Positions 117 to 58,552 of a DNA stretch of 60,048 bases are shown here, one piece after another. Position numbers and translations under genes: made by a program. Source of the DNA: an uncultured Candidatus Saccharibacteria bacterium (GTDB taxonomy: Bacteria > Patescibacteriota > Minisyncoccia > UBA6257 > GWB1-50-10); the NCBI GenBank assembly GCA_964565515.1, contig CAZMFA010000001.1:1-60048 (forward strand), in the 5' to 3' direction. The notes under the pieces were generated by a model that was not told where the DNA came from, searched no databases, and worked only from the letters and a program-made list of their open reading frames with translations. Position 1 is the first letter of the stretch. The number at the start of each line of letters is the position of its first letter.

Positions 117-1400
117 ATGAAACCGAAACAAAAAAATCACGAAGCAGCATGGGGAATCGCGGGAATGTCGGATATTTTGCCGAAGAATCAAGCCTATTGG
201 AGACAGCTCCTTGAGACCGGCAAGGCGGTCAGCGAACTCCACGACTTCAGTTTTATGGGGCTTTCCGCCGTGGAGCGGTATGAAATTTTCGAGAATGCGT
301 TCGGCAGCGATCGGGATATCCTCGAGCGCGAATTGTTCCCGTTGAAGGCGGGAAAGATGAAAGCGGCGCTCCGGTTCAGTTTTCGGGAGTCCGTCCTTCG
401 AAGCTTCATCGACAACAAATTGGCGTACTTTGCGTACCCCCTGAAGGTTTTCTATTTCGGTCCCGTCTTCCGCGACGTTCAAACCGATGAGTACTTTCTG
501 AAGCAGTTCCATCAATTCGGGTTTCAAGTGATCGGTGAAGCGGATCCGATATACGACGGAGAGGTCATCATCGCTCTCTACGATTTTTTCAAGAGCTTGA
601 GGCTCGCGAACGTCGTTTTAAAGATCGGCAGCTCCGGCTGCCATACGTGTCACGGGATCTTCAAGCATAAATTGCAGAATTACTATCGGGGAAGGTTGAG
701 AGATGTTTGCAAAACCTGCGCCAAGAATTTCGAAATCAATCCTTTTCTGCTCCTTTCGTGCAACGAAGAGAAATGCAAAGCGGCTCGGTCGGAAGGGCCG
801 ATCATTTTCGATTATCTTTGTCAAAGCTGCAACAATCATTTGAAGTCGGTGCTCGAGCTCGTCGAAGACAACGGCATACCGTATGAGCCGGACCCGAACA
901 TGGTTTCGACGGGTGACCTCAACAATCGGACGACCTTTGAATTTCGTACGCCCGAAATGCCGCACCCTTTAGCATTCGGCTGCCGGTACGATTATCTTTC
1001 CGAAGCGGTTTTCAAGCGGCAAATTCCGGCCGTCGGGGCGAACGTTGGGGTCGAGCGGGTCATGGAGGCGATGAAGCGGCAGAATGTGGAACCGCGTTTC
1101 AAATCGAAGCCGAAGGTCTTCTTCTTGGTCATCGGCGATCAAGCGAAGAAGGGGGCCTTAAAACTCATGAACAAACTCCGCCTCTCCGGCGTCGCCGTCG
1201 TTGAAATGGTCGGCAAGAAAACGCTGAAGGCTCAAATAAGGACCGCCGAGCGCATGGGCATCAAATTGGCGCTCCTCTTGGGGCAAAAGGAGGTTTTCGA
1301 CGGCACTGTTATCTTGCGGGATATGACTTCCGGGGTCCAAGAAACCATCTTAGTCGACAAGCTTGTGGAGGAGGTGAAAAAGAGGTTAAATAACGAATGA
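117..1400 (+). CDS. Histidyl-tRNA synthetase-like paralog (bacterial type, anticodon-binding domain present) with degenerate catalytic motifs
   Basis: ORF 42..1400. HisRS architecture: GMSDILP..W N-terminus, CxxC..NPxxLLSC insertion domain, and a C-terminal KVFFLVIGD..ALLLGQKE anticodon-binding domain. Core motifs have diverged: LRPEGT->LRFSFRE, FRYERPQxGRxRQFxQ->FRDVQTDEYFLKQFHQ, RGLDYY->TGDLNN, GGGRYD->FGCRYD. ATG 117 preferred; GTG 42 is possible. Confidence 0.7.
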   Translation: MKPKQKNHEAAWGIAGMSDILPKNQAYWRQLLETGKAVSELHDFSFMGLSAVERYEIFENAFGSDRDILERELFPLKAGKMKAALRFSFRESVLRSFIDNKLAYFAYPLKVFYFGPVFRDVQTDEYFLKQFHQFGFQVIGEADPIYDGEVIIALYDFFKSLRLANVVLKIGSSGCHTCHGIFKHKLQNYYRGRLRDVCKTCAKNFEINPFLLLSCNEEKCKAARSEGPIIFDYLCQSCNNHLKSVLELVEDNGIPYEPDPNMVSTGDLNNRTTFEFRTPEMPHPLAFGCRYDYLSEAVFKRQIPAVGANVGVERVMEAMKRQNVEPRFKSKPKVFFLVIGDQAKKGALKLMNKLRLSGVAVVEMVGKKTLKAQIRTAERMGIKLALLLGQKEVFDGTVILRDMTSGVQETILVDKLVEEVKKRLNNE

Positions 1401-4276: not shown

Positions 4277-5506
4277 ATGGCAAAGAGGACAAGAAAAGTT
4301 TCCAAAAGGAAGAGTGCGGTTTCGAGAGAAGGAAAGGTTAAAAAAATGGACGGCATCACGAAGATCAAGGTGGTCGGTGTCGGCGGTTGCGGCGGGAATG
4401 TCGTAACGCGAATGATGATGGGGGAGCGCCCGCGCGGCGTCGAATTCGTCGCCGTGAACACCGACAAGCAGGATTTGGATTATACGTTGGCGCATAAGAA
4501 GCTGTACATCGGAAAAGCTTTAACGCGGGGTTTGGGGGCCGGCATGAATCCGGAGATAGGGAAGCAAGCAGCCGAAGAAAACCGATCGGAAATCGGGGAA
4601 GTGCTCGAAGGGGCCGACATCATTTTTTTGGCGGCCGGGATGGGCGGCGGAACGGGAACCGGTGCGACGCCGGTCATCGCCGAGATCGCGAGAGAAAAAG
4701 GAATCCTAACGCTCGCGGTCGTTACAAAACCGTTTTCATTCGAGGGTACGCAACGAATGACCATTGCTCAAGACGGCATTAACCGCCTTCGAGAAAAAGT
4801 CGATTCGTTGGTCGTGATTCCGAACGATCGCATTTTTACCATCATTCAAAAAGATACGCCGGTCACGAAAGCATTCTCGTATATTGACGATGTCTTGAAG
4901 CAAGCAGTAAGAGCTCTCTCGGAACTCATTAATATGCCGGGGATCATCAATGTCGACTTTGCGGACATCAAATCGATTTTAAAAGAAGCCGGAACGACCC
5001 TGATCGGCATCGGCACTGCATCGGGGCAAGATCGAGGAATCAAAGCAGTGGGGTCCGCCATCAACTCGCCGCTTCTTGAAGTGACGCTTGACGGCGCGAA
5101 GGGAGTGCTCTTTTCGATCGCCGGCACGAGAGACTTGAGAATGTCGGAGATCAACGACATCGCAAAAGCAATCTCGGCAAATCTCGATTCGGGAGCGAAA
5201 GTCATTTTTGGAGCGTACCACGATCGGACGTTGAAAGATAAAGCGATCAAAGTGACGGTCATTGCAACCGGCTTCAACGGAATGTTTTCCGAAAAGCGCG
5301 CCGTACCAAACCTCTTTATGGTGAGCGAGCCGAAGGCGGGGGGAGAAAATCAAAGTAAGAGGGGAGAAGAACCGAAAAAACAAGCGAACGTCGAAGCGGT
5401 CGTTGAATTGGAAACGGAGGAATCGGAGCATCCGACGAAAGGAAACAAAGTGGAAAAACAGGAGCCGTGGGAAATACCCGCATTCCTCAGAAAAAAGAAA
5501 AAATAA
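4277..5506 (+). CDS. ftsZ: Cell division GTPase FtsZ
   Basis: GVGGCGGN, tubulin signature GGGTGTGA, NDR, and C-terminal IPAFLRKKK tail. An alternative start at ATG 4346 would remove a basic 23-aa extension. Confidence 0.95.
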   Translation: MAKRTRKVSKRKSAVSREGKVKKMDGITKIKVVGVGGCGGNVVTRMMMGERPRGVEFVAVNTDKQDLDYTLAHKKLYIGKALTRGLGAGMNPEIGKQAAEENRSEIGEVLEGADIIFLAAGMGGGTGTGATPVIAEIAREKGILTLAVVTKPFSFEGTQRMTIAQDGINRLREKVDSLVVIPNDRIFTIIQKDTPVTKAFSYIDDVLKQAVRALSELINMPGIINVDFADIKSILKEAGTTLIGIGTASGQDRGIKAVGSAINSPLLEVTLDGAKGVLFSIAGTRDLRMSEINDIAKAISANLDSGAKVIFGAYHDRTLKDKAIKVTVIATGFNGMFSEKRAVPNLFMVSEPKAGGENQSKRGEEPKKQANVEAVVELETEESEHPTKGNKVEKQEPWEIPAFLRKKKK

Positions 5507-5669: not shown

Positions 5670-7913
5670 ATGTCATTTACATCGGTTCGGAAGCGAGAAG
5701 GTCAAGTCGTCCCCTTTGACGGGGAACGGATAGCGCGCGCAATCGCGAAAGCGATGAAAGCGACCGGGGAAGGGAGCGAAAAAAATGCTGCGGAAGTCTC
5801 GGAGAAAGTCGTGCGTTCGCTTGGAAAGAAGTTTCCTTCCGATCATATCCTCGGTATCGAGGAAATACAAGATACCGTCGAAGAAGAATTGATGGCTGCC
5901 GACTTTTTGCAGACGGCAAAGGCGTATATTTTGTACCGCGAAGAGCGGGCAAAGCTCAGAGAATCGAAAAAAGAGATCCCCGACTATGTGTACGACCTTG
6001 CTCGCGAGAGTAAAAAATATTTCCGGAACCCCCTGGGAGAATTCATTTACTACCGGTCCTATTCGCGCTGGCTTGAACAAGAAGGCCGCCGCGAAACGTG
6101 GATCGAGACCGTTGAGCGGTACGTGAATTTCATGAAAAAGAATTTGGGAAATAAAGTGACCGACGAAGAGTATGAGGAACTGAAGCAGGCAATCCTTCGG
6201 CAGGATGTCATGCCGTCGATGCGACTCCTGTGGGGTGCGGGACACGCGGCGGAAGTGACGAACGTCACGGCATACAACTGCTCGTTCATCGCGCCGGCGC
6301 GCCCAAGGGACTTCGGCGAGATCATGTACCTTTCCATGTGCGGGGCAGGTGTCGGATTTTCCGTCGAACACCAAAATGTGGAAGAGCTCCCCTTGATCAA
6401 ACGGCAGAGCGGCGAAAAACTTCCCGCGCATATCATTGACGACAGCAAGGAAGGCTGGTCCGATGCCCTGGTTTTGGGACTCGAAGCATGGTTCGACGGC
6501 AAGGATATCGATTTTGATTTTTCGAAGATACGACCGCAAGGTGCGCGCTTGAAGACCATGGGCGGCCGAAGTTCGGGGCCGGACCCCTTGCGCTCCGTCC
6601 TTGAATTCGCGCGGAGAAAAATACTGGCAAAGCAAGGACGGCGACTCTCGACCTTGGATGTCCACGATGTCATCTGCAAAATCGGGGAAGTGGTCGTGAT
6701 GGGCGGCGTGCGCCGGACAGCCCTCATATCGCTTTCCGATTTGGACGATAAGGATATGCAAACGGCGAAGTTCGGGCAGTTCTATCTTACGGAGCCGCAA
6801 CGGGCGATGGCGAACAACTCGGCCGTTTACAACGAAAAACCCTCGGCTGCCGTATTCCTCGAGGAGTGGCTATCGCTCACGAAGAGCGGCAGCGGAGAAC
6901 GGGGCATTTTCAATAGGGGAGGCCTCGAGCGGCAAATGCCCGAGCGCCGTTGGAAGAATTTCAAGGCTTACCATCCGACGTCGGGAACCAATCCATGCGG
7001 CGAAATCGTCCTCAGATCGAAAGAATTTTGCAATTTATCCGAAATTGTCGCCCGTTTCGAGGATACCGAAGAAACCTTGCTAAAGAAGGCACGCTTGGCG
7101 GCCATCTTGGGGACGTACCAATCGACGTTGACCAATTTCAAATATCTTTCCCCCGAATGGAAGAAGAATTGCGACGAAGAGCGCCTGCTCGGCGTTTCGA
7201 TCACCGGCCAGTGGGATTCACCGGCTGTTCGGAGCGCCGCGACGCTCAAGAAGTTGAAAGAAATGGCGGTCGAGACCAACAAAGTATATGCAAAGAAGTT
7301 TGGCATCAACCAATCGGCATCGGTGACGTGCGTAAAGCCTTCCGGAACCGTATCGCAGTTGGTCGACGCCGCATCGGGCCTCCACCCGCGCCACGCCCAG
7401 TACTACATCCGAAGGATACGCATTTCCGCGACCGACAGCTTATTCAAGATGCTCCGCGACCAAAAGATCCCGTTTCATCCCGAAGTCGGTCAATCGAGCG
7501 AAAATGCGACGACCTACGTCCTCGAATTCCCGGTGAAAGCGCCGGATCAATCGATCTTGAAGAACGACCTTTCTGCCATCGAGCAGCTCGAGTATTGGAA
7601 GATGGTCAAGGAAAATTACACCGAACACAATCCGTCAGTCACCATTTCCGTCGGCGAAAACGAATGGGTCGAAGTGGCGGATTGGCTTTACAAGAACTGG
7701 GACATGTTGGGGGGACTTTCGTTCTTGCCCCGGGAAGACTTTGTGTACCAGCTTGCACCGTACGAGGAAATCTCAAAGGAGCGGTACGATGAGTTGGTTT
7801 CCGCATTCCCGCAAGTCGACTTTTCTCAAATCCTCCTTTATGAACGGGAGGACGAAACGCAGGGCGCCAAGGAACTGGCGTGCGTCGGGGGGACGTGCGA
7901 GATATCGGTGTAA
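5670..7913 (+). CDS. nrdJ: Class II (adenosylcobalamin-dependent) ribonucleotide reductase with N-terminal ATP-cone
   Basis: ATP-cone (VRKREGQVVPFDGERI), active-site TNPCGEI...FCNLSE, and C-terminal redox tail CVGGTCE. Confidence 0.85.
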   Translation: MSFTSVRKREGQVVPFDGERIARAIAKAMKATGEGSEKNAAEVSEKVVRSLGKKFPSDHILGIEEIQDTVEEELMAADFLQTAKAYILYREERAKLRESKKEIPDYVYDLARESKKYFRNPLGEFIYYRSYSRWLEQEGRRETWIETVERYVNFMKKNLGNKVTDEEYEELKQAILRQDVMPSMRLLWGAGHAAEVTNVTAYNCSFIAPARPRDFGEIMYLSMCGAGVGFSVEHQNVEELPLIKRQSGEKLPAHIIDDSKEGWSDALVLGLEAWFDGKDIDFDFSKIRPQGARLKTMGGRSSGPDPLRSVLEFARRKILAKQGRRLSTLDVHDVICKIGEVVVMGGVRRTALISLSDLDDKDMQTAKFGQFYLTEPQRAMANNSAVYNEKPSAAVFLEEWLSLTKSGSGERGIFNRGGLERQMPERRWKNFKAYHPTSGTNPCGEIVLRSKEFCNLSEIVARFEDTEETLLKKARLAAILGTYQSTLTNFKYLSPEWKKNCDEERLLGVSITGQWDSPAVRSAATLKKLKEMAVETNKVYAKKFGINQSASVTCVKPSGTVSQLVDAASGLHPRHAQYYIRRIRISATDSLFKMLRDQKIPFHPEVGQSSENATTYVLEFPVKAPDQSILKNDLSAIEQLEYWKMVKENYTEHNPSVTISVGENEWVEVADWLYKNWDMLGGLSFLPREDFVYQLAPYEEISKERYDELVSAFPQVDFSQILLYEREDETQGAKELACVGGTCEISV

Positions 7914-9273: not shown

Positions 9274-9346
9274 TGCCCCCAGCAGGATTCGAACCTGCGA
9301 CCCACTGCTTAAAAGGCAGGTGCTCTACCAACTGAGCTATAGGGGC
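9274..9346 (-). tRNA. tRNA-Lys (anticodon UUU)
   Basis: Reverse complement folds as a cloverleaf: acceptor GCCCCTA/TGGGGGC, D arm GCTC-AGTTGGTA-GAGC, anticodon loop CTTTTAA, T arm GCAGG-TTCGAAT-CCTGC. CCA is not encoded. Confidence 0.9.
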
Positions 9347-9457: not shown

Positions 9458-9713
9458 TCTCCGGTAGCTCAGCGGTAGAGCGGCTCCCTGTCGAGTAAGG
9501 CAGCGTTGCGCAGCAATGCGCAAATGAAAATCGGGCTAATTCGGGGAACTCTCGCAAGAGACAATCCCGAGCTAAGTTCTCGCCTATGGCGGGATAAATG
9601 TGTAGAGACTATATACCCGGGTCCCCACGTGGGACATGAGATAGTCCAGACCTTTTGGTGACAGAAGGACAACTGTAAGGAGATGGTCGTAGGTTCGATC
9701 CCTACCCGGAGAG
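9458..9713 (+). tRNA. tRNA-Asn (anticodon GUU) interrupted by a 184-nt intron between positions 35 and 36
   Basis: Exon 1 (9458..9491): TCTCCGG TA GCTC AGCGGTA GAGC G GCTCC CTGT. Exon 2 (9676..9713): TAA GGAGA TGGTC GTAGG TTCGATC CCTAC CCGGAGA G. The spliced loop CUGUUAA and discriminator G73 are as in bacterial tRNA-Asn. Confidence 0.85.
9492..9675 (+). ncRNA. Group I intron (IC3-like, no ORF)
   Basis: 5' splice site follows a U that pairs as U.G with the IGS GGCAG (9499..9503). P2 is TTGCGCA-GCAA-TGCGCAA. P4 is TCGGGG/TCCCGA, with A-rich J4/5. P5 is TCTC-GCAA-GAGA. P6 is CTCGCC-tat-GGCGGG. The core string GUGUAGAGACUA is present. P7 is GACTA/TAGTC, P8 is GTCCC/GGGAC, and the terminal G is at 9675. 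Confidence 0.8.
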
Positions 9714-11277: not shown

Positions 11278-11979
11278 ATGAATCCCAAGAAGGCGCCATT
11301 TCAGCAGCCGGAGATCGAAGGGCCGCTTGAGACCGCGGTTGAAAAAGCCATGCGCGGCGAAATAGCGTGGGAAGAAGAAGCCGAAGAGACACTCCCGCTC
11401 TATGATAAGGAAGCGGAAAAAATAAGCGAAGAGCTCAAAAATATCAAGGACGCCCCGAAGGAATATCGGGAGCTTTTGGTCCGGAGGTTCAAGGAACGGC
11501 TCAAGCGGCGTGTGGAGGGTCTGGCGGCGGTTCAGGCGGGCGCTATTGCGGCAATCGAAAAGAATCCTGACATTTCGAAGGATGCTCTCCTGGAATCAGT
11601 CAAGAAGCTCGGATCCCGGTACGGCATGACGAAGGATCAGGAGGAGACGGCGGAATCACTCGTCGATCTCTACGAATTGAGGCATAAAAAAATCGGGGAA
11701 ATACGGCAGCGGTATCCCAAGGATCGCGATCTTTTTAAGGTCTTGTTTGGGAGGAACTCCGAGGGGAAAGTCGAGATTATCGATGGTCCGATGACGTTTT
11801 ACGTGCGGTGCGAAAATCTCGACGATTACGCCTTTATTTGTAATCGGAAATTCCTGAACGGCGGGAATATCGAACCCTCGGACCGGGAGCGGGCAAGATC
11901 GACGCGGCTGCCGCGGAATCGCACGCCCTCGCGGATGAGCATTCTTTTCTTCGCCGGCAAGCCGCCCTTCGCCGAGTAG
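11278..11979 (+). CDS. Hypothetical protein (charged, helical N-terminal half); 3' end uncertain
   Basis: 233-aa ORF with a strong promoter. The last ~50 codons are antisense to the MGMT gene and may not be native. Confidence 0.5.
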   Translation: MNPKKAPFQQPEIEGPLETAVEKAMRGEIAWEEEAEETLPLYDKEAEKISEELKNIKDAPKEYRELLVRRFKERLKRRVEGLAAVQAGAIAAIEKNPDISKDALLESVKKLGSRYGMTKDQEETAESLVDLYELRHKKIGEIRQRYPKDRDLFKVLFGRNSEGKVEIIDGPMTFYVRCENLDDYAFICNRKFLNGGNIEPSDRERARSTRLPRNRTPSRMSILFFAGKPPFAE

Positions 11980-12185
11980 CCGGTTAGGGCCCCGTCCGCC
12001 GCGACCACGCGATGGCAAGGGACGATAGGCGCCTGAGGATTTGTTTTCATGAAATACCCGACGGCACGGGCGGCGCGGGGATTTCCCGCAAGACGGGCGA
12101 CTTGTCCGTACGTCGCGACTTTCCCCTTGGGGATTCGCCTCGCGATCGCGTACACTTTTTCGCGGAACGACGGTGTTTTTTCCAT
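11826..12185 (-). CDS. MGMT-family (O6-alkylguanine-DNA alkyltransferase DNA-binding domain) protein, copy 1
   Basis: IPKGKVATYGQVA..GNPRAARAVG...PCHRVV active-site motif. About 18-aa C-terminal extension relative to copy 2. TATAGT lies 6 nt upstream of the ATG. Confidence 0.85.
   Translation of the reverse strand: MEKTPSFREKVYAIARRIPKGKVATYGQVARLAGNPRAARAVGYFMKTNPQAPIVPCHRVVAADGALTGYSAKGGLPAKKRMLIREGVRFRGSRVDLARSRSEGSIFPPFRNFRLQIKA
12001..12091. repeat. 91-bp tract identical to 13459..13549 (inside MGMT copy 1)
   Basis: Exact direct repeat. Flanking coding sequence of the two paralogs is clearly diverged. Confidence 0.95.
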
Positions 12186-12224
12186 ACCTTCACTATACCA
12201 TTACTACTGAAGCCGGCTTCACTG
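12182..12224. repeat. Right copy of the 43-bp inverted repeat; divergent promoter region between MGMT copy 1 and the Nudix gene
   Basis: Reverse complement of 11027..11069. Includes the MGMT start codon (12183..12185), its TATAGT box, and the palindrome at 12208..12221, which abuts the TGGACA -35 of the Nudix gene. Confidence 0.95.
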
Positions 12225-12258
12225 GACAGGTGGCGGCCGGCCGAATACCATTTATTTT

Positions 12259-12957
12259 ATGGATAGAGATGTGCATGCGATCCAGGCCGGCATCATGAAA
12301 GAGCTCCTCCTCAAGAAAGAAGCGAGATTTTCGGAACTGAACGTCAATAAGGTGCCGACCGATCAGTTTACCTTTCACGTGCGGCAGCTTACCGAGCGCG
12401 GGATCATCGAAAAGATGGATGAAGGACAGTACCGTTTGACGGTTTCCGGGAAGGAGTACGCGAACCGTTTCGATATCGATTCGGGCCCGGTTAAATTCGA
12501 GCATCAAGCGAAGATCGGCGTCCTCGTCGTCGCGACGAGGAAGAAGGGCGGCAAAATCGAATACGTAATGCAGGAACGCCGCAAGCATCCGTTCTTCGGC
12601 TTTCGCGGGTTCATCACGGGGAAGGTGAAACTTGGCGAATCGATTGTCGAAACCGCAAAGCGGGAACTTCGGGAAGAAACCGGCCTCGCGGCCGACTGCG
12701 AGCCGAAGACCGTTTATCACGAACGCATCCTGTCGCGGGAGAACGATCTTCTGGAAGACAAGAATTTTTTCATCTTCACGGCCCCGAATCCCGTGGGCGA
12801 CCTCGTCGAGGAGTTCGACGGGGGAAAGAACCGGTGGATCCCGGAGAACGAGGTGCTCGAAGGGAATATTTTTTACGATATTGCCGATATCTTGAAGCTC
12901 ATTCGATCTGATCATTTCACATTTTCGGAAAGGTCGTATGTCGTCGATGAATACTAA
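12259..12957 (+). CDS. Winged-helix (MarR/ArsR-like) plus Nudix hydrolase fusion protein
   Basis: N-terminal wHTH (FSELNVNKVPTDQFTFHVRQLTERGIIEK). Nudix box GKVKLGESIVETAKRELREETGL. TGGACA-N17-TACCAT lies 7 nt before the ATG. Confidence 0.8.
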   Translation: MDRDVHAIQAGIMKELLLKKEARFSELNVNKVPTDQFTFHVRQLTERGIIEKMDEGQYRLTVSGKEYANRFDIDSGPVKFEHQAKIGVLVVATRKKGGKIEYVMQERRKHPFFGFRGFITGKVKLGESIVETAKRELREETGLAADCEPKTVYHERILSRENDLLEDKNFFIFTAPNPVGDLVEEFDGGKNRWIPENEVLEGNIFYDIADILKLIRSDHFTFSERSYVVDEY

Positions 12958-13325
12958 TGAAAAAGATTTATTACAACAAACTCATACGCGATCGGATCCC
13001 TGAGAAAATCACGAAAAACGGCGGACTGTTTAAGATTGAAAAACTCGATCAAAAGTCGTTCGAAAGGGAGCTTATAAAGAAAGTCGGCGAAGAAGCAACC
13101 GGCCTTTTGCACGCGAAGACCAAAGAAGAAATTGCTTCGGAACTCGGCGATATCATCGACGTCATCGAAGAAGTGAAAAAAGTGAAGAAGATTTCGCGCA
13201 AGGAAATCGAATCGGCGCAAAGGAAAGCGTACGATGTGAAGGGGGGATTCAAGAAAAAACTATTTCTCGTCTGGTCATCCGATACGGGCTATCGGACGAA
13301 TGAACGGCGCTATTCAGGGAAGTAG
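12957..13325 (+). CDS. MazG-like all-alpha NTP pyrophosphohydrolase (PRA-PH-like)
   Basis: YNKLIRDRIPEKI N-terminus and E-rich helices (EEATGLL, ELGDIIDVIEEV) typical of this small family. TAATG overlap with the Nudix gene. Confidence 0.6.
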   Translation: MKKIYYNKLIRDRIPEKITKNGGLFKIEKLDQKSFERELIKKVGEEATGLLHAKTKEEIASELGDIIDVIEEVKKVKKISRKEIESAQRKAYDVKGGFKKKLFLVWSSDTGYRTNERRYSGK

Positions 13326-13328
13326 GGA

Positions 13329-13643
13329 TTATCTCTTCCAGCGCGATTTTCGAAGGTCCACGCGGGCGCCGCGGAACGACACCCCTTCCTTGCGGAGTAT
13401 GAGCTCCTTTTTCTTCAATCCTCCTTCGGTTGAATAGCCGGTCAAAGCACCGTTCGCGGCGACCACGCGATGGCAAGGGACGATAGGCGCCTGAGGATTT
13501 GTTTTCATGAAATACCCGACGGCACGGGCGGCGCGGGGATTTCCCGCAAACCGCGCAAGATCGCCGTAGGTTGCAACCTTGCCTTTCGGTATCTTTTGAG
13601 CTATTTGGTAAACCTTTTCGCGAAAGGAAAATTCCTTTTTCAT
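13329..13643 (-). CDS. MGMT-family protein, copy 2
   Basis: IPKGKVATYGDLA..GNPRAARAVG..PCHRVV. Start placed at MKKEFSFREKVY by alignment with copy 1 (ORF track extends to 13697). Confidence 0.85.
   Translation of the reverse strand: MKKEFSFREKVYQIAQKIPKGKVATYGDLARFAGNPRAARAVGYFMKTNPQAPIVPCHRVVAANGALTGYSTEGGLKKKELILRKEGVSFRGARVDLRKSRWKR
13459..13549. repeat. 91-bp tract identical to 12001..12091 (inside MGMT copy 2)
   Basis: Exact direct repeat. Confidence 0.95.
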
Positions 13644-13702
13644 CTGTCGTTTCATTGTACTAAGCCCTTGACTGGAAAGCACGGAAGACGGTAGCATACG
13701 GA

Positions 13703-15223
13703 GTGACTTTGACTAACATGCAGCATTTGAAAGGACTCTTCGGGAGGTTCGGGAAATTTTTCATCGCCGCCGCTCTTCTTATCATCGCGGCTGCAATTTA
13801 TTTTTACGTTGCTTCGAGTGGAGCGCCGTCGTTCGGCGTGTATGCGGTCGCCCGGGGCGATCTTACGGAATCGGTTGACGTTTCGGGGAATGTAAGCGCC
13901 GATCACAGCGCCAACCTTTCATTCCAGGAAACCGGCCAAGTGGCGGCCGTTCCCGTCGAAGAAGGAGCGACGGTTGCGGTAGGCACTGTATTGGCCGAAC
14001 TTGACCAGTCGTCCCTTGCGGCGGCTGCGGAACAAGCAAATGCAGCGCTCGCCGCAGCTGAAGCGAAATTGAGCGGCATGGAAAACGGAACAAGGCCGGA
14101 GCAGATCACGCTCGACGAAGGAGCACTCACGAGCGCCGAATCATCACTTTCAGCGGCCCTCGAAAGCGCGTATGTCGCCGCGGACGACGCCATACGGAAT
14201 CAAACGGACAATCTTTTTTCCAATCCTACGAGCATGAATCCCGTCTTTTTGGTTGCTGCGCCCGACGCCCAGCTCGTCATCGATATCGAAGCGGAACGGC
14301 AACATATGACAACCATCCTCGACGGCTGGTATGTCGCTCAAGGTGCCACGAGTTCCAGTGTGGCGGGGGGATATCAAATTGCTTCCGCGGCGCTCCAAAA
14401 CATAGAGTCGTATTTGAATGCCGTTGCCCTTGCGGTAAACAGCGCCGTTCCGAACGGTACGGTGGCGGCTTCGACGCTCGCGACGTATAAAACGGACATC
14501 ATTGCGGCGCGATCGGAAATAACGGAAGCGAATACCGCCCTTTCGACTGCAAATGCAGCATTCACCGTTGCAGAAAATACCCTGGCGCTTGCCAAAGCCG
14601 GTTCGACGCCGGAAGATATCGCGGCAGAGAAGGCGGTAGTGCTCCAAGCGCAAGCAGCTGCAGCAAGCGCGGAAGTCGCCTTGAATCACGCGGTGCTCCG
14701 GGCACCCTTTGCGGGATCGATCAGCAATTTGAATGTTACGGTGGGCGAAGTCGTTTCAATCGGCACTCCCGTTGCAACGATCACCAATCCCAGCGGTATG
14801 AAGATAGAAACCTACGCTTCGGAGAACGACGTGGCACGTCTTGCGGTCGGCGACCAAGCGGCGGTAACCCTCGACGCGTACGGTTCCGGCACCACGTTTC
14901 CGGCGACGGTAACCGCCATCGCCGCCGCCGAGACGGAAGTAAACGGTGCGCCGGCATACGAAGTAACGCTCCACTTTACCGGGAACGACAATCGGATCAA
15001 AGACGGGATGACGGGAACCGCGCATATCGTGGCGGCAACCCGCGCGAACGCCCTCGAGGTTCCCACGCGGCTCATCCTTTCCGACGGCAATCGTTCCTTC
15101 GTTCTCGTGAAAAGCGGATCGGGAACGGAAAAACGGGAAGTTATAACCGGCTTGACGGGCGATAACGGGATGACGGAGATCGTTTCCGGCGTGTCGGCAG
15201 GCGACCAAGTAGTCAGCTTTTAA
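13703..15223 (+). CDS. HlyD/MacA-type periplasmic adaptor (membrane fusion protein) with long coiled coil
   Basis: N-terminal TM, lipoyl-like VxxGxxVxxGxVLAELD, Ala-rich coiled coil, C-terminal beta-barrel. Paralog of 44555..46126. Confidence 0.8.
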   Translation: MTLTNMQHLKGLFGRFGKFFIAAALLIIAAAIYFYVASSGAPSFGVYAVARGDLTESVDVSGNVSADHSANLSFQETGQVAAVPVEEGATVAVGTVLAELDQSSLAAAAEQANAALAAAEAKLSGMENGTRPEQITLDEGALTSAESSLSAALESAYVAADDAIRNQTDNLFSNPTSMNPVFLVAAPDAQLVIDIEAERQHMTTILDGWYVAQGATSSSVAGGYQIASAALQNIESYLNAVALAVNSAVPNGTVAASTLATYKTDIIAARSEITEANTALSTANAAFTVAENTLALAKAGSTPEDIAAEKAVVLQAQAAAASAEVALNHAVLRAPFAGSISNLNVTVGEVVSIGTPVATITNPSGMKIETYASENDVARLAVGDQAAVTLDAYGSGTTFPATVTAIAAAETEVNGAPAYEVTLHFTGNDNRIKDGMTGTAHIVAATRANALEVPTRLILSDGNRSFVLVKSGSGTEKREVITGLTGDNGMTEIVSGVSAGDQVVSF

Positions 15224-35417: not shown

Positions 35418-35519
35418 GGTCGTTGTTTTTTTTTTCGGCCTTTTGACGACGCCATGGCGACGTCTGTAAGAGGATACGCTTGCCCGCATTTAATGTTACA
35501 ATGTAGTATATTCTTAACT

Positions 35520-36857
35520 ATGACACACAAGCTAAAACCGCAATTGTCTTCCGGATTCAAGGATTATCTTCCCGAAGAGGAGAGGAAAAGGAACAAGATG
35601 CTCGATACCATAAAGAGGAACTTCGAGCTCTTCGGGTTCGTGCCGCTCGATACGCCGGGAATTGAAGAAGAGCGGATGCTGACGGGCGGGGATCCGGAGT
35701 TCAAGAAGCAAATATTCAAGATCAAGGAAAGCGACAAGAGCGAGAGCCTTGCGCTCAGATTCGACCTCACGGTCCCTCTGGCGCGGGTCGTCTCGATGTA
35801 TCCGAATGAAATAACCTTCCCTTTCAAGCGGTATCAAGTCGGCAAGGTATGGCGGGGAGAACGAGCGCAAGCAGGCCGATTCCGGGAATTTTTACAGTTT
35901 GATGCGGATATCGTGGGGTCGGGGAGCCTTTTGGCGGATGCGGAAATCGTGGCGCTCATGAATCAGGTCATGGTATCCCTCGGATTCCAAAATTTCCTGG
36001 TGAAGATCAATAATCGCAAAGTTCTCGGCGGATTGCCGAAGTATGCCGGGTTTCCGAAGGGGAAACTGGATGCCGTCCTCCGCGCCGCGGATAAGTGGGA
36101 TAAGGTCGGCGCGAGGGGCGTCCTCGGGGAGCTTACTTCGAAGACCGCCGCCCTCTCGAAGGAGGAAGCGCGCCGCGTCATGGATTTTTTCAGCATCAAA
36201 GCATCGAGCAATCGCGAGCTTTTGAAATCAGCGCGTACGCTTATGTCGACTGATGATGCGGAAGCGGGATTCGCCGAAATGGAAGCGTTGATCGATCACC
36301 TTGCTTCCTTGGGGGTTCCGGAAGATAAATGGACATTCGATTTCGCGACGGTGAGGGGTCTTGCCTACTACACCGGTTTCGTTTTTGAAACGATTTTGAC
36401 CGATTTGCCGGAAGTGGGAAGCGTCTTTTCGGGAGGGCGGTACGACAATCTCATCGAGCATTTGGGCGGCGGGAAGCTCCCGGCGGTCGGCGTCTCGGTT
36501 GGCGTCGATCGGATGCTTTACGCAATGGAAAAGCTCGAAGTTTCTTTCGGCGGCGGAGGAAATGTGCGGACGATCGTACTGCATTTCGATGAAGGGGCGG
36601 TCGCTTTGGCGGCGCGGGCGGTTTACGAGCTCCGCAAGAACGGAATTCCTTCCGAAATTTACCTTGGAAGGGAAAAAACATTGAAGGGGCAACTCGCGTT
36701 CGCGGTGAAGAATAACTATGCCGTCGCGGTCTTGGTTGGCGATCGGGAAGCTTCAACGGGCACCGCGACGATCAAGGATCTCAAGTCATACCAGCAGACC
36801 GAAGTTGCCATCGAACGTTTGGCTTCGTCGGTCGGGAAGATTTTGGGCGGACGATAG
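35520..36857 (+). CDS. hisS: Histidyl-tRNA synthetase (intact motifs)
   Basis: GFKDYLPEE, motif 2 WRGERAQAGRFREFLQFDADIVG, RGLAYYTGFVFE, GGRYDNL, and an anticodon-binding domain. Start at ATG 35520, 7 nt after TATATT. Confidence 0.9.
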   Translation: MTHKLKPQLSSGFKDYLPEEERKRNKMLDTIKRNFELFGFVPLDTPGIEEERMLTGGDPEFKKQIFKIKESDKSESLALRFDLTVPLARVVSMYPNEITFPFKRYQVGKVWRGERAQAGRFREFLQFDADIVGSGSLLADAEIVALMNQVMVSLGFQNFLVKINNRKVLGGLPKYAGFPKGKLDAVLRAADKWDKVGARGVLGELTSKTAALSKEEARRVMDFFSIKASSNRELLKSARTLMSTDDAEAGFAEMEALIDHLASLGVPEDKWTFDFATVRGLAYYTGFVFETILTDLPEVGSVFSGGRYDNLIEHLGGGKLPAVGVSVGVDRMLYAMEKLEVSFGGGGNVRTIVLHFDEGAVALAARAVYELRKNGIPSEIYLGREKTLKGQLAFAVKNNYAVAVLVGDREASTGTATIKDLKSYQQTEVAIERLASSVGKILGGR

Positions 36858-37538: not shown

Positions 37539-37590
37539 GGCCCCCCGCTCTCCTCGAATTTTTGAAGGAGGGCGGGGGGCCAAAGTTTTG
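37539..37590 (+). terminator. Very stable 16-bp GC hairpin after the UDG gene
   Basis: GGCCCCCCGCTCTCCT-loop-AGGAGGGCGGGGGGCC followed by AAAGTTTT (weak U-tract). Confidence 0.55.
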
Positions 37591-37600
37591 GGGGAGGGGG

Positions 37601-37606
37601 TATAAT
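37601..37606 (+). promoter_or_regulatory. -10 box TATAAT, 6 nt before ATG 37613
   Basis: If the 70-bp element is removed, the same box sits 6 nt before the DUF763 start codon. Confidence 0.5.
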
Positions 37607-37616
37607 GGAGGGATGA

Positions 37617-37686
37617 ATCCCGTTAAAAACCGCAAACTTATGAAAGAGATAATCACCCATGAAAAAGGCGTTTTGTTTCTAACGGG
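37617..37686. mobile_element. Copy B (short, 70 bp) of the TIR element family, flanked by ATGA on both sides
   Basis: ATGA|ATCCCGTTAAAAACCGC...GGCGTTTTGTTTCTAACGGG|ATGA. The right end abuts the DUF763 start codon. Confidence 0.6.
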
Positions 37687-38874
37687 ATGAAGCGCGGCAT
37701 TGCCACATTCACACTCGACGAAGGAAAATGCCCTCCGTGGCTTTTTGAACGCATGGTGAAACTCGGCAGGGATATGATAAAGATCCTCATCGCCGAGTAT
37801 GGACCGGACGAATTCGTGCGGCGCATGGCGGACCCGGTATGGTTTCAGTCCTTAGGCACGGTTCTCGCGTTCGATTGGAACGCGTCCGGCCTCACGACGA
37901 TCTTGACCGCGGCCCTCAAGGAAGCGATCCGCCACGAGGAATGGGAACTCGGGGTATTCATTTGCGGCGGGAAGGGCAAGACCTCGCGGCAAACGCCCGA
38001 CGAGATTCTCCGATGGGGGGAAAAGATCGGCATGAGCGACAAAAAAACCAATGCTTTGGTTTACAACTCGAAGATGAGCGCGAAAGTGGACAGCGCGCTG
38101 GTCCAGGACGGCTTCCAGATCTATCACCACAGCTTCATGTTTTCGCGGAACGGCGCTTGGACCGTCGTCCAGCAGGGGATGAACACGGAAAACCAGACCG
38201 CGCGGCGGTATCACTGGTTTTCAGAAAACGTCCACGATCTGGTGTGCGAGCCGCATTCCGGCATAGCTTCCAAAAAATTCGACAAGGACGTCTTGAATAT
38301 GGTTGCGAAGCAGAGCGGCGGAAGCCGTAATATGTCGGTGGAGCTGGTCAATGCCAATTACAATACCCTCATGAAAGACGTGACGATTCTCCGAAAACAT
38401 TTCTCCCGGTATTCCAACATGATCGCTCTCGGCAACGGCAAGGAACAGCTGACGCTTCTCGATCTCGACCGGGGAGAGTTCAACTATCATCCGATGATCC
38501 ATGAGAATTTCACGATGAATAAATATTTGGATAAAGTTTTGCAGGAAGTTTCCTTTCAAAAGCCGGAGAATTACGAAAAGCTGGTCTCCTTGAAAGGCGT
38601 CGGGCCGAAAACGGTTCGGGCCTTGGCTTTGGTCGGTGAAGTCATTTACGGCGTGAAGCCGTCGTATGAAGACCCGGCGCGGTACAGTTTCGCGCACGGC
38701 GGGAAGGACGGTACGCCGTACCCCGTCGATGTCAAGACCTATGACGAGACGATCGCGATCTTGAAGCAAGCGGTCTCAAAGACCCGTTGGAATCAGAGTG
38801 AAAAGAAGAAGGCGGCAAATAAACTCGAAAATAATCAGGATTACCCCTCGAAGTGGGGAACGATGAGCTTTTGA
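37687..38874 (+). CDS. DUF763 family protein (contains a helix-hairpin-helix-like GVGPKTVRALAL segment)
   Basis: N-terminus GKCPPWLFERM...DPVWFQSLGTVLAFDWNASGLTT matches my recollection of DUF763. Confidence 0.65.
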   Translation: MKRGIATFTLDEGKCPPWLFERMVKLGRDMIKILIAEYGPDEFVRRMADPVWFQSLGTVLAFDWNASGLTTILTAALKEAIRHEEWELGVFICGGKGKTSRQTPDEILRWGEKIGMSDKKTNALVYNSKMSAKVDSALVQDGFQIYHHSFMFSRNGAWTVVQQGMNTENQTARRYHWFSENVHDLVCEPHSGIASKKFDKDVLNMVAKQSGGSRNMSVELVNANYNTLMKDVTILRKHFSRYSNMIALGNGKEQLTLLDLDRGEFNYHPMIHENFTMNKYLDKVLQEVSFQKPENYEKLVSLKGVGPKTVRALALVGEVIYGVKPSYEDPARYSFAHGGKDGTPYPVDVKTYDETIAILKQAVSKTRWNQSEKKKAANKLENNQDYPSKWGTMSF

Positions 38875-46850: not shown

Positions 46851-46970
46851 GTCCCGTTAGAAATCGCGTACGCAAATCATAAGAGAAAACATGAAAACCC
46901 AATCAGTCGAATATTTCAAAAATAATCTACGCAAAACGCGAGCATGCGTATGCGTACTATTTCTAACGGG
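46851..46970. mobile_element. Copy C (120 bp) of the TIR element family, flanked by ATGA on both sides
   Basis: ATGA|GTCCCGTTAGAAATCGCGTACGC...GCGTATGCGTACTATTTCTAACGGG|ATGA. Sits between the ABC ATPase and permease genes. Confidence 0.65.
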
Positions 46971-48215
46971 ATGAGGTTCAATGACGCATTCAAAACGGCG
47001 CTGCGGAACGTAGGACATTCGAAAATGCGCTCATTCCTCACGATCCTGGGAATCGTGATCGGCGTTGCGTCGGTCATCATTCTGATGTCCGTCGGCCAAT
47101 CGGCGCAGGATTATATCTTGAATCAAGTAAAGGGCGTCGGGTCCAATTTGATCTTCATCATACCGGGCGGCACGGGCGGCTCGAAGTTTTCCGCGCCGGC
47201 ATCGGAACGAGGGGTCTTGATCAAGACGCTCGTGGCGGGGGATGTTACGGCGCTCGAACGGGAGCCGACCATCGCGGCCGTCGCGCCGATCGTGAATGGG
47301 CAAGCGACCGTTGCTTACGGCAACAACGACACATCGGTCCCGTATGAAGGGGTGACGTCCGAATTTTTCCCGATGCGGAATTTCGGCGTCTCGGCGGGAA
47401 GGATATTCAATCAGTCTGACATCGATTCTTCGAATCGGGTCGTGATCCTCGGTTCGACCGTCGCAAAAACGCTCTTCGGCGGCGTGACCCCGGTCGGGAA
47501 GTTCGTTCGCGTGCAAAACGTTCCACTCCAAGTGGTGGGTGTTTTGACGGACGAAGGAGTGGGGCCGGGAGGGATCGATCAGAACAATATGGTTTTGATT
47601 CCCGTGACCGTTGCGCAAAACCAACTCCTTGGCATCAATTACTATAATTATATTTTGGTTCAGGCGAACAGCTCTTACGACATCAGTTTCGTGACAGCGC
47701 GGGTGAAGACGGTCTTGAGGCAAACGCATCACATTACAGATCCGGTGAAGGATGATTTCACGGTCGAAACGCAAGCCGACATCCTTTCCATTTTAGGGAA
47801 TATCACGTCCGTCATGACCATCTTCCTCACGGCGATCGCGTCGATCTCGCTCATCGTCGGCGGCATCGGGATCATGAATATCATGCTCGTATCGGTCGTC
47901 GAACGGACGCGGGAGATCGGTCTCCGGAAGGCGGTCGGCGCAACGACGGCGGACATCTTGCGCCAGTTTTTGATCGAAGCGACGCTCTTAACGCTCCTCG
48001 GGGGCATCGTGGGGATCTTGCTCGGCGGACTCGTGACTTTCGGGGCATACCTCGTGATCGCAAAGCTTTTGAATGTCGCATGGACGTTTGCCTTGCCCTT
48101 CGGCGCCGTCATACTCGGCGCCGGCGTCTCGATCTTGGTCGGATTGGTCTTCGGGTTTTATCCCGCACGCCAAGCTGCCCGCAAAAGCCCGATTGAGGCA
48201 TTGCATTATGAATAG
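46971..48215 (+). CDS. MacB-type ABC transporter permease (FtsX domain)
   Basis: N-terminus MRFNDAFKTALRNVGHSKMRSFLTILGIVIGV; MacB periplasmic domain plus a C-terminal FtsX 3-TM bundle. The ORF track start at 46944 lies inside the element. Confidence 0.85.
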   Translation: MRFNDAFKTALRNVGHSKMRSFLTILGIVIGVASVIILMSVGQSAQDYILNQVKGVGSNLIFIIPGGTGGSKFSAPASERGVLIKTLVAGDVTALEREPTIAAVAPIVNGQATVAYGNNDTSVPYEGVTSEFFPMRNFGVSAGRIFNQSDIDSSNRVVILGSTVAKTLFGGVTPVGKFVRVQNVPLQVVGVLTDEGVGPGGIDQNNMVLIPVTVAQNQLLGINYYNYILVQANSSYDISFVTARVKTVLRQTHHITDPVKDDFTVETQADILSILGNITSVMTIFLTAIASISLIVGGIGIMNIMLVSVVERTREIGLRKAVGATTADILRQFLIEATLLTLLGGIVGILLGGLVTFGAYLVIAKLLNVAWTFALPFGAVILGAGVSILVGLVFGFYPARQAARKSPIEALHYE

Positions 48216-57532: not shown

Positions 57533-57655
57533 ATCCCGTTAGAAATCGCGTACGCGCATCATCACGAAGAAACAATATGGATAAAGAACTAATAAAAATG
57601 GTCAAAGGCAATATACGCAAAGCGCGTTCCGCGTATGCGTACTATTTCTAACGGG
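57533..57655. mobile_element. Copy D (123 bp) of the TIR element family, flanked by ATGA on both sides
   Basis: ATGA|ATCCCGTTAGAAATCGCGTACGC...GCGTATGCGTACTATTTCTAACGGG|ATGA. The 14-bp perfect TIR is ATCCCGTTAGAAAT/ATTTCTAACGGGAT. Sits between secD and secF. Confidence 0.65.
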
Positions 57656-58552
57656 ATGAAATTTTTGAACGTCGTAGAAAACAGAAAATACTATTTATCG
57701 TTCGCTGCCGTCATTGTTGCGGCGAGCTGGCTCGGCGTTATCTTCCTCGGCTTGAAGCCCGGGATCGATCTTTCGGGGGGAACCGAGTGGCAAGTTGCGT
57801 TCACCAGCGGAAATGTTTCGGTCTCTGAGGTACAATCGGCGCTTTCGTCCGCGGGGCTTCGGGAGCTCGCGGTGAGGAGCCTCGGGCCGAACCAATTCGA
57901 CGTCGAAACGCCGGAAATGAGCGAAGCCGACCATCAAAAATATGCCGATGTATTGAAGGCGAAAATCGGAAACTTCAACGACGAAAATTTTTCGAGTATC
58001 GGCCCCACGGTGGGAAGCGAGCTGGCGCACAAATCGATGACCGCCATCATCCTCGTTTTGGTCGGGATTTCGCTCTATATCGCGTACGCTTTTCGGAAAG
58101 TTTCGGAGCCGGTCAAATCGTGGAAGTACGGGTTGATAACGCTTGCGACGCTCGTCCACGACGTTTCCATTCCAGCGGGTTTTTTGGCGCTCCTCGGATT
58201 TTTCAAGGGCGTTGAAATAGATACCAACTTCATCGTGGCGCTTTTGGTCATTATGGGCTTTTCCGTTCACGATACCATCGTTGTTTTCGACCGGATCCGG
58301 GAAAATCTTTTGGTGGCTCGGGGAAAGAAGACCCCGCTTGCGGAGGTCATCGATTACAGCGTCCGGGAAACGTTTGCGAGGTCTGTAAACACGTCCTTCA
58401 CGCTCGTCTTGGTCCTTGTTGCGCTCATCGTATTCGGTCCGCAATCCCTCTTTTATTTCATCCTTACGATACTGATCGGTACTCTTTTTGGCACCTATTC
58501 TTCCATATTCGTCGCGAGCCCCCTTTTGTACCTTTGGCAGAAGAAAGACTAG
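57656..58552 (+). CDS. secF: Protein translocase subunit SecF
   Basis: MKFLNVVENRKYYLSF N-terminus, GIDLSGGTEW, FSVHDTIVVFDRIRE. The ORF track start at 57635 lies inside the element. Confidence 0.9.
   Translation: MKFLNVVENRKYYLSFAAVIVAASWLGVIFLGLKPGIDLSGGTEWQVAFTSGNVSVSEVQSALSSAGLRELAVRSLGPNQFDVETPEMSEADHQKYADVLKAKIGNFNDENFSSIGPTVGSELAHKSMTAIILVLVGISLYIAYAFRKVSEPVKSWKYGLITLATLVHDVSIPAGFLALLGFFKGVEIDTNFIVALLVIMGFSVHDTIVVFDRIRENLLVARGKKTPLAEVIDYSVRETFARSVNTSFTLVLVLVALIVFGPQSLFYFILTILIGTLFGTYSSIFVASPLLYLWQKKD

Follow-up and report, generated by a model that had tools for sequence, protein, structure and literature searches.

How can a gene still be read once an inserted sequence has come to lie between its promoter and its start codon? 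This question is raised by a DUF763 gene in a 60,048-nt stretch of DNA from an uncultured Candidatus Saccharibacteria bacterium (contig CAZMFA010000001.1 of assembly GCA_964565515.1; the whole stretch is called the window here), where 70 bp with inverted ends stand between a TATAAT box and the ATG of the gene. These 70 bp, referred to as copy B, are a small element that inserted into the DUF763 start codon. We consider it likely that a short reading frame within it hands ribosomes over to the host gene, and suggest with less confidence that a GIY-YIG nuclease mobilises the family to which it belongs. Copy B, its host gene and the other element copies of the window lie on the plus strand.

Copy B and its empty sites

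Positions 37601-37691 of the window read TATAAT-GGAGGG-ATGAA, followed by the 70-bp element (T...A, 37618-37687) and TGAAGCGC. The window sequence thus bears out the layout given in the first-pass annotation, namely TATAAT-GGAGGG-ATGA followed by a 70-bp inverted-repeat stretch. The -10 box of the DUF763 promoter (TATAAT, 37601-37606) and GGAGGG (37607-37612) precede the left ATGA (37613-37616), and the box lies 6 nt before the left ATG, as in a leaderless layout. This left ATG (37613-37615) is the gene start in empty sites, i.e. the former DUF763 start codon. It now opens an open reading frame (ORF) of 25 codons plus TGA (37613-37690; peptide MNPVKNRKLMKEIITHEKGVLFLTG), whose stop overlaps the true ATG in an ATGA, as had been described. 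The host gene itself (37687-38874) opens with ATGAAGCGC at 37687 and encodes a DUF763 protein of 395 aa (Pfam, E=3e-126).

The ends of the 70-bp stretch, CCCGTTAAAAAC and GTTTCTAACGGG, are inverted. The left terminal inverted repeat is TCCCGTTAAAAAC (37618-37630), the family core TCCCGTTAGAAAT being almost invariant, and the right repeat GTTTCTAACGGGA (37675-37687) ends in an A that is also the A of the rebuilt DUF763 ATG; the two arms are 13 nt each, with one mismatch. On either side stands TGAA (left, 37614-37617; right, 37688-37691), a 4-bp target-site duplication that follows the family rule TGNR. In the window the two-ended pattern CCCGTTANAAAC...GTTTNTAACGGG is found a single time, and none of 100 shuffles contains it; as RNA, copy B forms one terminal stem (-20.3 kcal/mol, z=-3.4). 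Copy B itself has no GIY-YIG domain.

The source organism belongs to the Patescibacteria, and evidence for insertion comes from its relatives. The best DUF763 homologues are 83-91% identical and derive from metagenome-assembled genomes (MAGs) of Patescibacteria, on contigs that are syntenic with the window (HisRS-UDG-DUF763-ATPase). In three of these loci the DUF763 gene has an uninterrupted TATAAT-N6-ATGA start: L004 (TATAATGGAGGGATGAAACGC, in short form GTATAATGGAGGGATGAAACGC), L001 (TATAATGGGGGAATGAAGCGC) and L006 (TATAATAGAGGCATGAGACGC). The first-pass annotation had reconstructed the empty site as TATAAT-N6-ATG and had suggested looking for orthologous loci without the 70 bp; the three syntenic loci match that reconstruction, and a profile search found no element copy in the relatives' syntenic loci. 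A further locus, L131, was found by a metagenome scan built to retrieve the B site in its empty as well as its filled state. It carries a full-length 108-bp element of the same subfamily at the identical ATGAA and behind the same TATAAT; box and spacing are kept in L001, L004, L006 and L131. Three empty sites and the full-length copy in L131 thus show copy B to be the product of a real insertion that afterwards lost 38 internal bases by deletion. Since L131 is filled and L001 and L004 are empty, the insertion is placed before the split from the L131 genome and after the split from L001 and L004. Copy B uses the overlapping TGA as its stop rather than the usual family stop, a TAA inside the right repeat, because the 38-bp deletion shifted the frame.

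Three details of the first-pass annotation have to be revised. The duplication, given there as ATGA or GA, is TGAA (4 bp), as evidence from the family places the boundaries one base further right. The leaderless layout, said to be used by many other genes, is present as TATAAT-N6-8-ATG at only ~5 of ~55 others in the window, so that 'several' is the fitting word. Copy B, finally, is a deletion derivative rather than a complete element.

The deletion behind copy B also formed GATAAT-CACCC-ATG (37650-37662), which could give a secondary leaderless start with a 7-codon frame (MKKAFCF) ending at TAA before the DUF763 ATG. Just upstream of the DUF763 promoter and 3' of the UDG gene lies a GC-rich hairpin (37540-37583), retained in L004 and L001 with compensatory changes, which is probably the UDG terminator. 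A promoter and terminator scan around copy B was uninformative; TATAAT itself went unreported for lack of a -35 box.

Four copies in the window

Profile search and repeat finding detected exactly four copies in the window, all on the plus strand and each directly before the ATG of a gene. Copy A (108 bp, 1409-1516), which belongs to B's subfamily, lies in the start codon of a HIT gene, 3' of a HisRS-like gene. It is decayed in its left repeat and in its left ATG (now ACG), and its internal ORF (MKKIIANEVELTAHHRQLLMKKAFCF, 1431-1511) still has its TAA stop 4 nt ahead of the HIT ATG. Copy C (120 bp, 46852-46971; duplication TGAG) lies in the start codon of a MacB-type permease gene, after an ABC ATPase gene, and holds two small ORFs in series, the second of which (46891-46974) ends at a TGA that overlaps the permease ATG. 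Copy D (123 bp, 57534-57656; duplication TGAA) lies at the ATGA junction of secD and secF; its ORF of 40 codons begins at the left ATG (57529) and stops with a TAA (57649-57651) 4 nt before the secF ATG. Copies A and B have one interior in common, and copies C and D a second one.

The site of copy C is empty in L004, where the two genes overlap by ATGA, and in L006, where a 1-nt gap is found. The site of copy D is empty in L121 (ATGA overlap). The empty sites for B, C and D therefore establish mobility, in agreement with the earlier proposal that the family is, or was, mobile.

In the closest relative (L120; SecF 94% identical), which belongs to the same assembly as L131, the secD/secF junction (4703-4726) reads GGCATGAATACAAAAATGAAATTT, with two ATGAA copies separated by TACAAA. 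This could be the footprint of an excision or of a near-total deletion of the element. HisRS-like paralogues are located at 42-1400 and 35454-36857 in the window, each upstream of a region with an element copy.

A family of start-codon insertions in Patescibacteria

When genomes were scanned for the right-end pattern, at least 112 loci were obtained. Among the matches listed, which form the basis of all counts in this section, more than 110 copies come from ~65 Patescibacteria MAGs, and the partner end lies 110-125 nt upstream in 100 of 117 pattern matches. All loci belong to Patescibacteria MAGs (Kaiserbacteria, Paceibacterota, Parcubacteria, Lloyd-, Wolfe-, Giovannoni-, Sung- and Nomurabacteria, and MAGs labelled Saccharibacteria) except six chance matches without a partner end; judging from these matches, the family is restricted to Patescibacteria. 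The elements are 70-124 bp in size, with a modal length of 117 bp, and carry no transposase gene. Their consensus is ATGNR-TCCCGTTAGAAAT(C/A)GCGGACGC...GTCCGCGTCCTATTTCTAACGGGA-TGNR, with repeat subfamilies ..AGAAAT.., ..AGAGAT.., CCCGGTAGTACAA.. and CCCTGTTAAAT.., and 128 repeat pairs were counted in 0.94 Mb of loci. Full-text searches, repeat sequences included, found no description of this large family, which is apparently undescribed.

The target is narrow. On the left, 91 of 111 copies are flanked by ATG and three more by GTG, with the ATG displaced by one base in several; on the right, 107 of 111 are flanked by TG. Both 4-bp flanks are identical in 86 of 111 copies, while their last two bases vary from site to site. 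Overall, the insertion point falls exactly within a start codon in ~90% of copies, and a long ORF that is a real gene begins at 106 of 111 right-hand ATGs. The host genes are mutually unrelated. Many left ATGs follow a TATAAT/TATACT-type box by 6-8 nt, and others lie at stop/start junctions. Where the left flank is GTG the right junction is still ATG, and in variants with C...G ends the right junction is GTG. It follows that the element's last base serves as the first one of the rebuilt start codon and that the duplication measures 4 bp. At the fifth position of ATGNR a purine stands in 104 of 107 copies versus 50 of 82 ordinary genes of relatives (p=8e-11), so that there is a real target preference (TGNR) beyond the ATG itself. 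Copies collected independently of the scan pattern have the same flanks.

The orientation is equally uniform, with a single reverse copy, in L077, which forms an open in-frame fusion with its host. In-frame fusions are rare (L077, L048 and copy A of L114).

Two further observations concern single loci. In L064, a bare 28-nt hairpin at a gene start (6387-6415, GTCCCGTTAGAAAAGTTTCTCTAACGGGATG) looks like an extreme deletion derivative of the element. Two near-identical copies from one MAG (L064 3478-3601 and L069 2056-2179) share the left flank ATGCG, and the right flank of L069 is ATGAG; either the left flank was carried along in movement or gene conversion took place between the copies.

Hairpin, reading frame and a model for ribosome hand-over

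What do the copies have in common besides their ends? The stem's outermost 14 bp are paired in 93-96 of 96 copies. Compensatory changes are confined to 3 of 18 pairs, in the inner stem, and the outer stem is nearly invariant, which suggests sequence-specific recognition rather than a generic RNA helix. No interior consensus structure is shared among the copies, the terminal stem alone being common to them. Across copies the hairpin has a strength of -20 to -55 kcal/mol and includes the region of the host ATG; the sequence has no Shine-Dalgarno motif before the rebuilt ATG.

The copies also keep a reading frame open. Of 101 copies, 84 have at least 20 open codons in the frame leading to the TAA (..TTTCTAACGGGATG), versus 15 and 17 for the other two frames, and the lengths of the elements are most often divisible by three (63:26:14). 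In 91 of 100 copies, an ORF that begins with ATG and spans at least 15 codons runs to the TAA 4 nt ahead of the host ATG, to the overlapping TGA or into an in-frame fusion, versus 36.3 predicted by interior shuffles (z=11.8); 52 of these terminal ORFs start at the captured host ATG (15.7 expected). Read from the left ATG, 53 of 91 copies have their own stop before the host ATG. Single copies fit the retention of the frame: the reverse copy in L077 is an open fusion, the decayed copy A keeps its terminal ORF although its ends can no longer be functional, and in copy B the frame moved from TAA to TGA.

The peptide is another matter. Entropy is equal at codon positions 1, 2 and 3 (1.52, 1.57 and 1.56), and the near-identical copies in L064 and L069 differ by amino-acid-changing substitutions only. 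The mini-peptides match nothing in Pfam or NCBIfam, and the protein index holds no protein that shares three 5-mers with the consensus peptide, which argues against a long transposase beginning with MNPVRNRGR. Since the frame is protected and its positions are equally variable, selection keeps the frame open, and the peptide is unconserved.

We propose the following model. Transcription would still come from the TATAAT box and begin at or near the left ATG. A ribosome would initiate on this 5'-terminal ATG; at copies C and D it may instead arrive from the upstream gene. It would then translate the 25-codon frame and thereby melt the terminal hairpin, which, if left closed, would hide the DUF763 start. 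On reaching the TGA of the ATGA (in the family, 0-4 nt from the host ATG) it would terminate and restart on the overlapping ATG. Ribosomes are thus probably handed over from the mini-ORF to the host gene, as the reading frames of the family suggest, and with such a hand-over to DUF763 the insertion would cost the host little. Copies without such a frame, or in the wrong orientation, would be removed by selection.

GIY-YIG genes between the same ends

If the 70-124-bp elements carry no transposase gene, what could move them? Three long units of 276-278 bp have the same design: L133 884-1160, L114 5098-5375 and L114 5781-6057. The unit in L133 came from the metagenome matches, and the two in L114 from a tblastn search over all loci. 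All three are bounded by ATGAA-TCCCGTTAGAGAT...ATCTCTAACGGGA-TGAA, have the same orientation as the mini-elements, and lie behind a -10 box and before three different genes with unrelated flanks. The asymmetric right subterminal motif TCCTAT is common to long units and mini-elements. The ORF of the long units encodes a GIY-YIG protein of 83-94 aa (Pfam PF01541, E=5e-17), whose nearest solved structure is that of the UPF0213 protein BH0048 (PDB 1ZG2). In L133, the family left end is followed by an 83-aa ORF that stops at the TAA inside the right repeat, and then by rpiB. Among the long units, the coding frame begins at the captured host ATG or a little behind it. The two L114 copies both open it with that ATG (MNPVRDNNMCYVYV...); in one it ends at a TGA that overlaps the host ATG, and in the other a frameshift leads to an in-frame fusion.

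Similar arrangements exist with other repeats. In L150 (~440-770, minus strand of the locus), a GIY-YIG gene is flanked by a different repeat, CCCGGTAGTACAACTTC, and TATG is duplicated at the start codon; in L028 (5230-5560, minus strand), a GIY-YIG gene is accompanied by a third repeat variant, ACCCTGTTAAAT. These variants may belong to a wider superfamily with one design.

No other partner came to light. Within the 0.94 Mb of element-rich loci there are no repeat pairs 0.3-6 kb apart that could mark an autonomous form. An IS1595-type DDE transposase that adjoins secF in a relative (L121 3913-4695, minus strand) was rejected as partner, as its ends are unrelated to those of the element. Neither the GIY-YIG protein nor the right end of the element was found in viral contigs. 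With less confidence than for any other part of our account, we regard the 276-278-bp members as candidate autonomous or parental forms, in which case a UPF0213-type nuclease would mobilise the family.

From this follows a tentative proposal, to which we give somewhat less than even credence. The family may represent an unrecognised class of prokaryotic transposon, whose sole protein would be a minimal (83-94 aa) UPF0213-type GIY-YIG nuclease. It would insert into start codons, borrow the promoter and the ATG of the host, and return the ribosomes via the stop in its right repeat; the 70-124-bp copies, including B, would be non-autonomous derivatives kept harmless by the same relay.

Several points weigh against our explanation as a whole. 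The case for the hand-over by termination-reinitiation, which the first-pass annotation had raised as a possibility, is statistical, resting on ORFs across the family. Some 9% of copies have no terminal ORF, and in 37 of 91 copies a stop in the frame of the left ATG means that a second restart inside the element would be needed. The invariance of the outer stem leaves an RNA role without support from covariation. The scan pattern forced a T after the terminal A and sampled mainly one subfamily. As for the nuclease, its link to the family consists of three clear copies in two MAGs and two variant families, and the 60-kb window has no GIY-YIG gene. Mini-elements and GIY-bearing elements share their ends, with no interior homology detected by nhmmer. 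We know of no UPF0213 protein for which movement of DNA has been demonstrated, and the model offers no route by which a GIY-YIG nuclease would make a 4-bp duplication.

Alternative explanations

Could the sequence before DUF763 be something other than an insertion? That it is a conserved leader inherited vertically with the gene has in its favour its position between promoter and gene and nothing further; this is refuted by its absence from three syntenic relatives with otherwise conserved flanks, and the same element stands before unrelated genes, so that the chance of a leader is negligible. We also think it very improbable that what selection preserves is a functional small protein (e.g. 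a toxin or a signal peptide) encoded by the mini-ORF. The frame is indeed strongly kept open, and termini (MNPVRNRGR...SASYF) and an NRIGFG-like motif recur. The conserved termini, however, are the translated inverted repeats, the peptide of copy B is truncated and frame-shifted relative to that of L131, and no match exists in Pfam, NCBIfam or the protein index. The amino-acid-changing differences between L064 and L069 point the same way, and it was the flat codon-position entropy that led us to drop this reading. An RNA module, for instance a nuclease site (e.g. for RNase III), an attenuator or terminator, or a stabiliser, with the ORF being incidental or a leader peptide, would account for very stable stems directly against the ATG, for a GC-rich inner stem that is followed by UAUUUCU, and for a small hairpin of variable sequence that recurs just inside the right arm. 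It would leave unexplained why one specific frame is protected if the role is processing. Moreover, there is no Rfam match at the elements at either gathering or E-value thresholds, the outer stem is invariant and not compensated, so that covariation is absent, and close relatives whose orthologous leaders lack the element manage without it. The host genes are unrelated and thus do not form a regulon. On balance we judge such a module to be quite unlikely.

It is harder to set aside an ordinary MITE (a miniature transposable element with inverted repeats) that is moved in trans by a conventional, e.g. DDE-type, transposase. Location and orientation would then reflect purifying selection in compact genomes, and the GIY-YIG gene would be a passenger. 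Inverted repeats with a short duplication are a hallmark of DDE transposition, the TNNR target is weakly symmetric, and the reverse copy in L077 shows that both orientations can insert. Yet no long element with these repeats occurs in the ~0.94 Mb of element-rich loci, and the sole transposase seen, the IS1595-type enzyme of L121, has unrelated ends. Instead, the GIY-YIG protein is the only one found between these repeats, in three copies at three genes, and it appears again in a second repeat family. We therefore consider a conventional transposase unlikely and prefer the account in which the element moves with a GIY-YIG nuclease.

Some further candidates were rejected. In integron attC sites the core motifs stand in the opposite order; Xer/dif-like sites and IS200/IS605 elements do not agree with the variable 4-bp duplication present here; and translational bypass was dismissed as there is no stop after the first codon.

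Other features of the window and its relatives

Above the gathering thresholds, Rfam reports a tRNA (9274-9346, minus strand) and a group I intron (9482-9668, plus strand) in the window. A 240-nt direct repeat with 77% identity is present at 11895-12134 and 13353-13592. In L001, a cassette that resembles a diversity-generating retroelement (11290-14536; bAvd, RVT_1 and an FGE-sulfatase-like target gene) lies between DUF763 and a P-type ATPase gene; the window, L004 and L006 are without this cassette.

Implications

Taken together, these data point to a low-cost insertion strategy by which an element seems to persist in bacterial genomes that are among the most compact known. It would insert at the beginning of a gene, rebuild the start codon with its last base and pass the ribosome on through a disposable frame. 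Approximately one window gene in 14 carries the element at its start. For annotation, this means that mini-ORFs go uncalled as genes and that true gene starts lie behind strong hairpins. The copies also provide a natural series in which leaderless initiation and termination-reinitiation could be studied. If the GIY-YIG link is true, the widespread UPF0213/YhbQ-like family of unknown function would gain a role, and a new enzyme class would join the bacterial transposases.

Comparison with known systems

Which known systems does the element resemble? By its terminal repeats, fixed 4-bp duplication, small size, dispersal and empty sites, it has the structure that defines a MITE. As to the cognate transposase that is expected of a MITE, the longer members with the same ends encode only the GIY-YIG nuclease, which is not a known transposase class, and no DDE-type partner was found. 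Among MITE-like repeats, the Correia elements (CREE) of Neisseria are similar in several respects: they are ~100-150 bp long, have terminal inverted repeats and a short duplication, and occur as many dispersed copies that are co-transcribed with their neighbours and polymorphic for presence or absence. Correia elements duplicate TA, are intergenic and occur in either orientation; restoration of a start codon or retention of an ORF is not known for them. In contrast, the element described here duplicates TGNR after the A of a start codon, has the repeat TCCCGTTAGAAAT and a fixed orientation, and maintains a terminal ORF.

Short palindromes are also spread by the REP/REPIN system with its RAYT transposases and by the IS200/IS605 group. 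As in our family, short hairpin repeats far outnumber the gene of the presumed enzyme. However, REP/REPIN sequences and IS200/IS605 derivatives leave no duplicated target, are situated beyond stop codons, outside genes, and have subterminal hairpins and HUH tyrosine transposases, whereas our element has a variable 4-bp duplication and terminal repeats. The element belongs to none of the Correia, REPIN, IS200/IS605 or Rickettsia palindromic groups.

The long members invite comparison with GIY-YIG homing genes (I-TevI, Seg/Mob of T4) and with UPF0213/YhbQ-type proteins, whose catalytic domain is found in the long members only. Like homing genes, they are small selfish cassettes that sit beside a host gene without disrupting it. 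Homing endonucleases, however, convert one cognate allele via repair, involve no inverted repeats or duplications and have an extra DNA-binding domain. Here, a protein of 83-94 aa is enclosed by repeats and a TGAA duplication, and three copies are found at three genes. The nearest report comes from the same phylum: non-intron insertions with GIY-YIG ORFs have been reported in the rRNA genes of bacteria from the candidate phyla radiation (CPR), and according to the authors they do not look like homing (PMC11270868). Compared by description, those insertions differ in their rRNA gene location, and inverted repeats, duplications and start-codon targeting are not described for them.

In terms of tolerance by the host, parallels are offered by the Rickettsia palindromic elements (RPE) and the QMITEs of Coxiella, palindromic mobile repeats of reduced genomes that are tolerated because they are translatable (PMC5896051). 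RPE insert in frame inside a coding sequence and become part of the protein. Our element instead lies at the start codon, has its own stop and leaves the host protein unchanged except in rare fusions, e.g. in L077. The proposed hand-over is akin to termination-reinitiation coupling, in which an upstream stop and the next ATG overlap or are at most 4 nt apart, and the downstream start has no Shine-Dalgarno motif and is buried in structure. Unlike in usual coupling, the upstream frame is carried by a mobile element and its product is unconserved. The element may thus be viewed as a portable coupling device.

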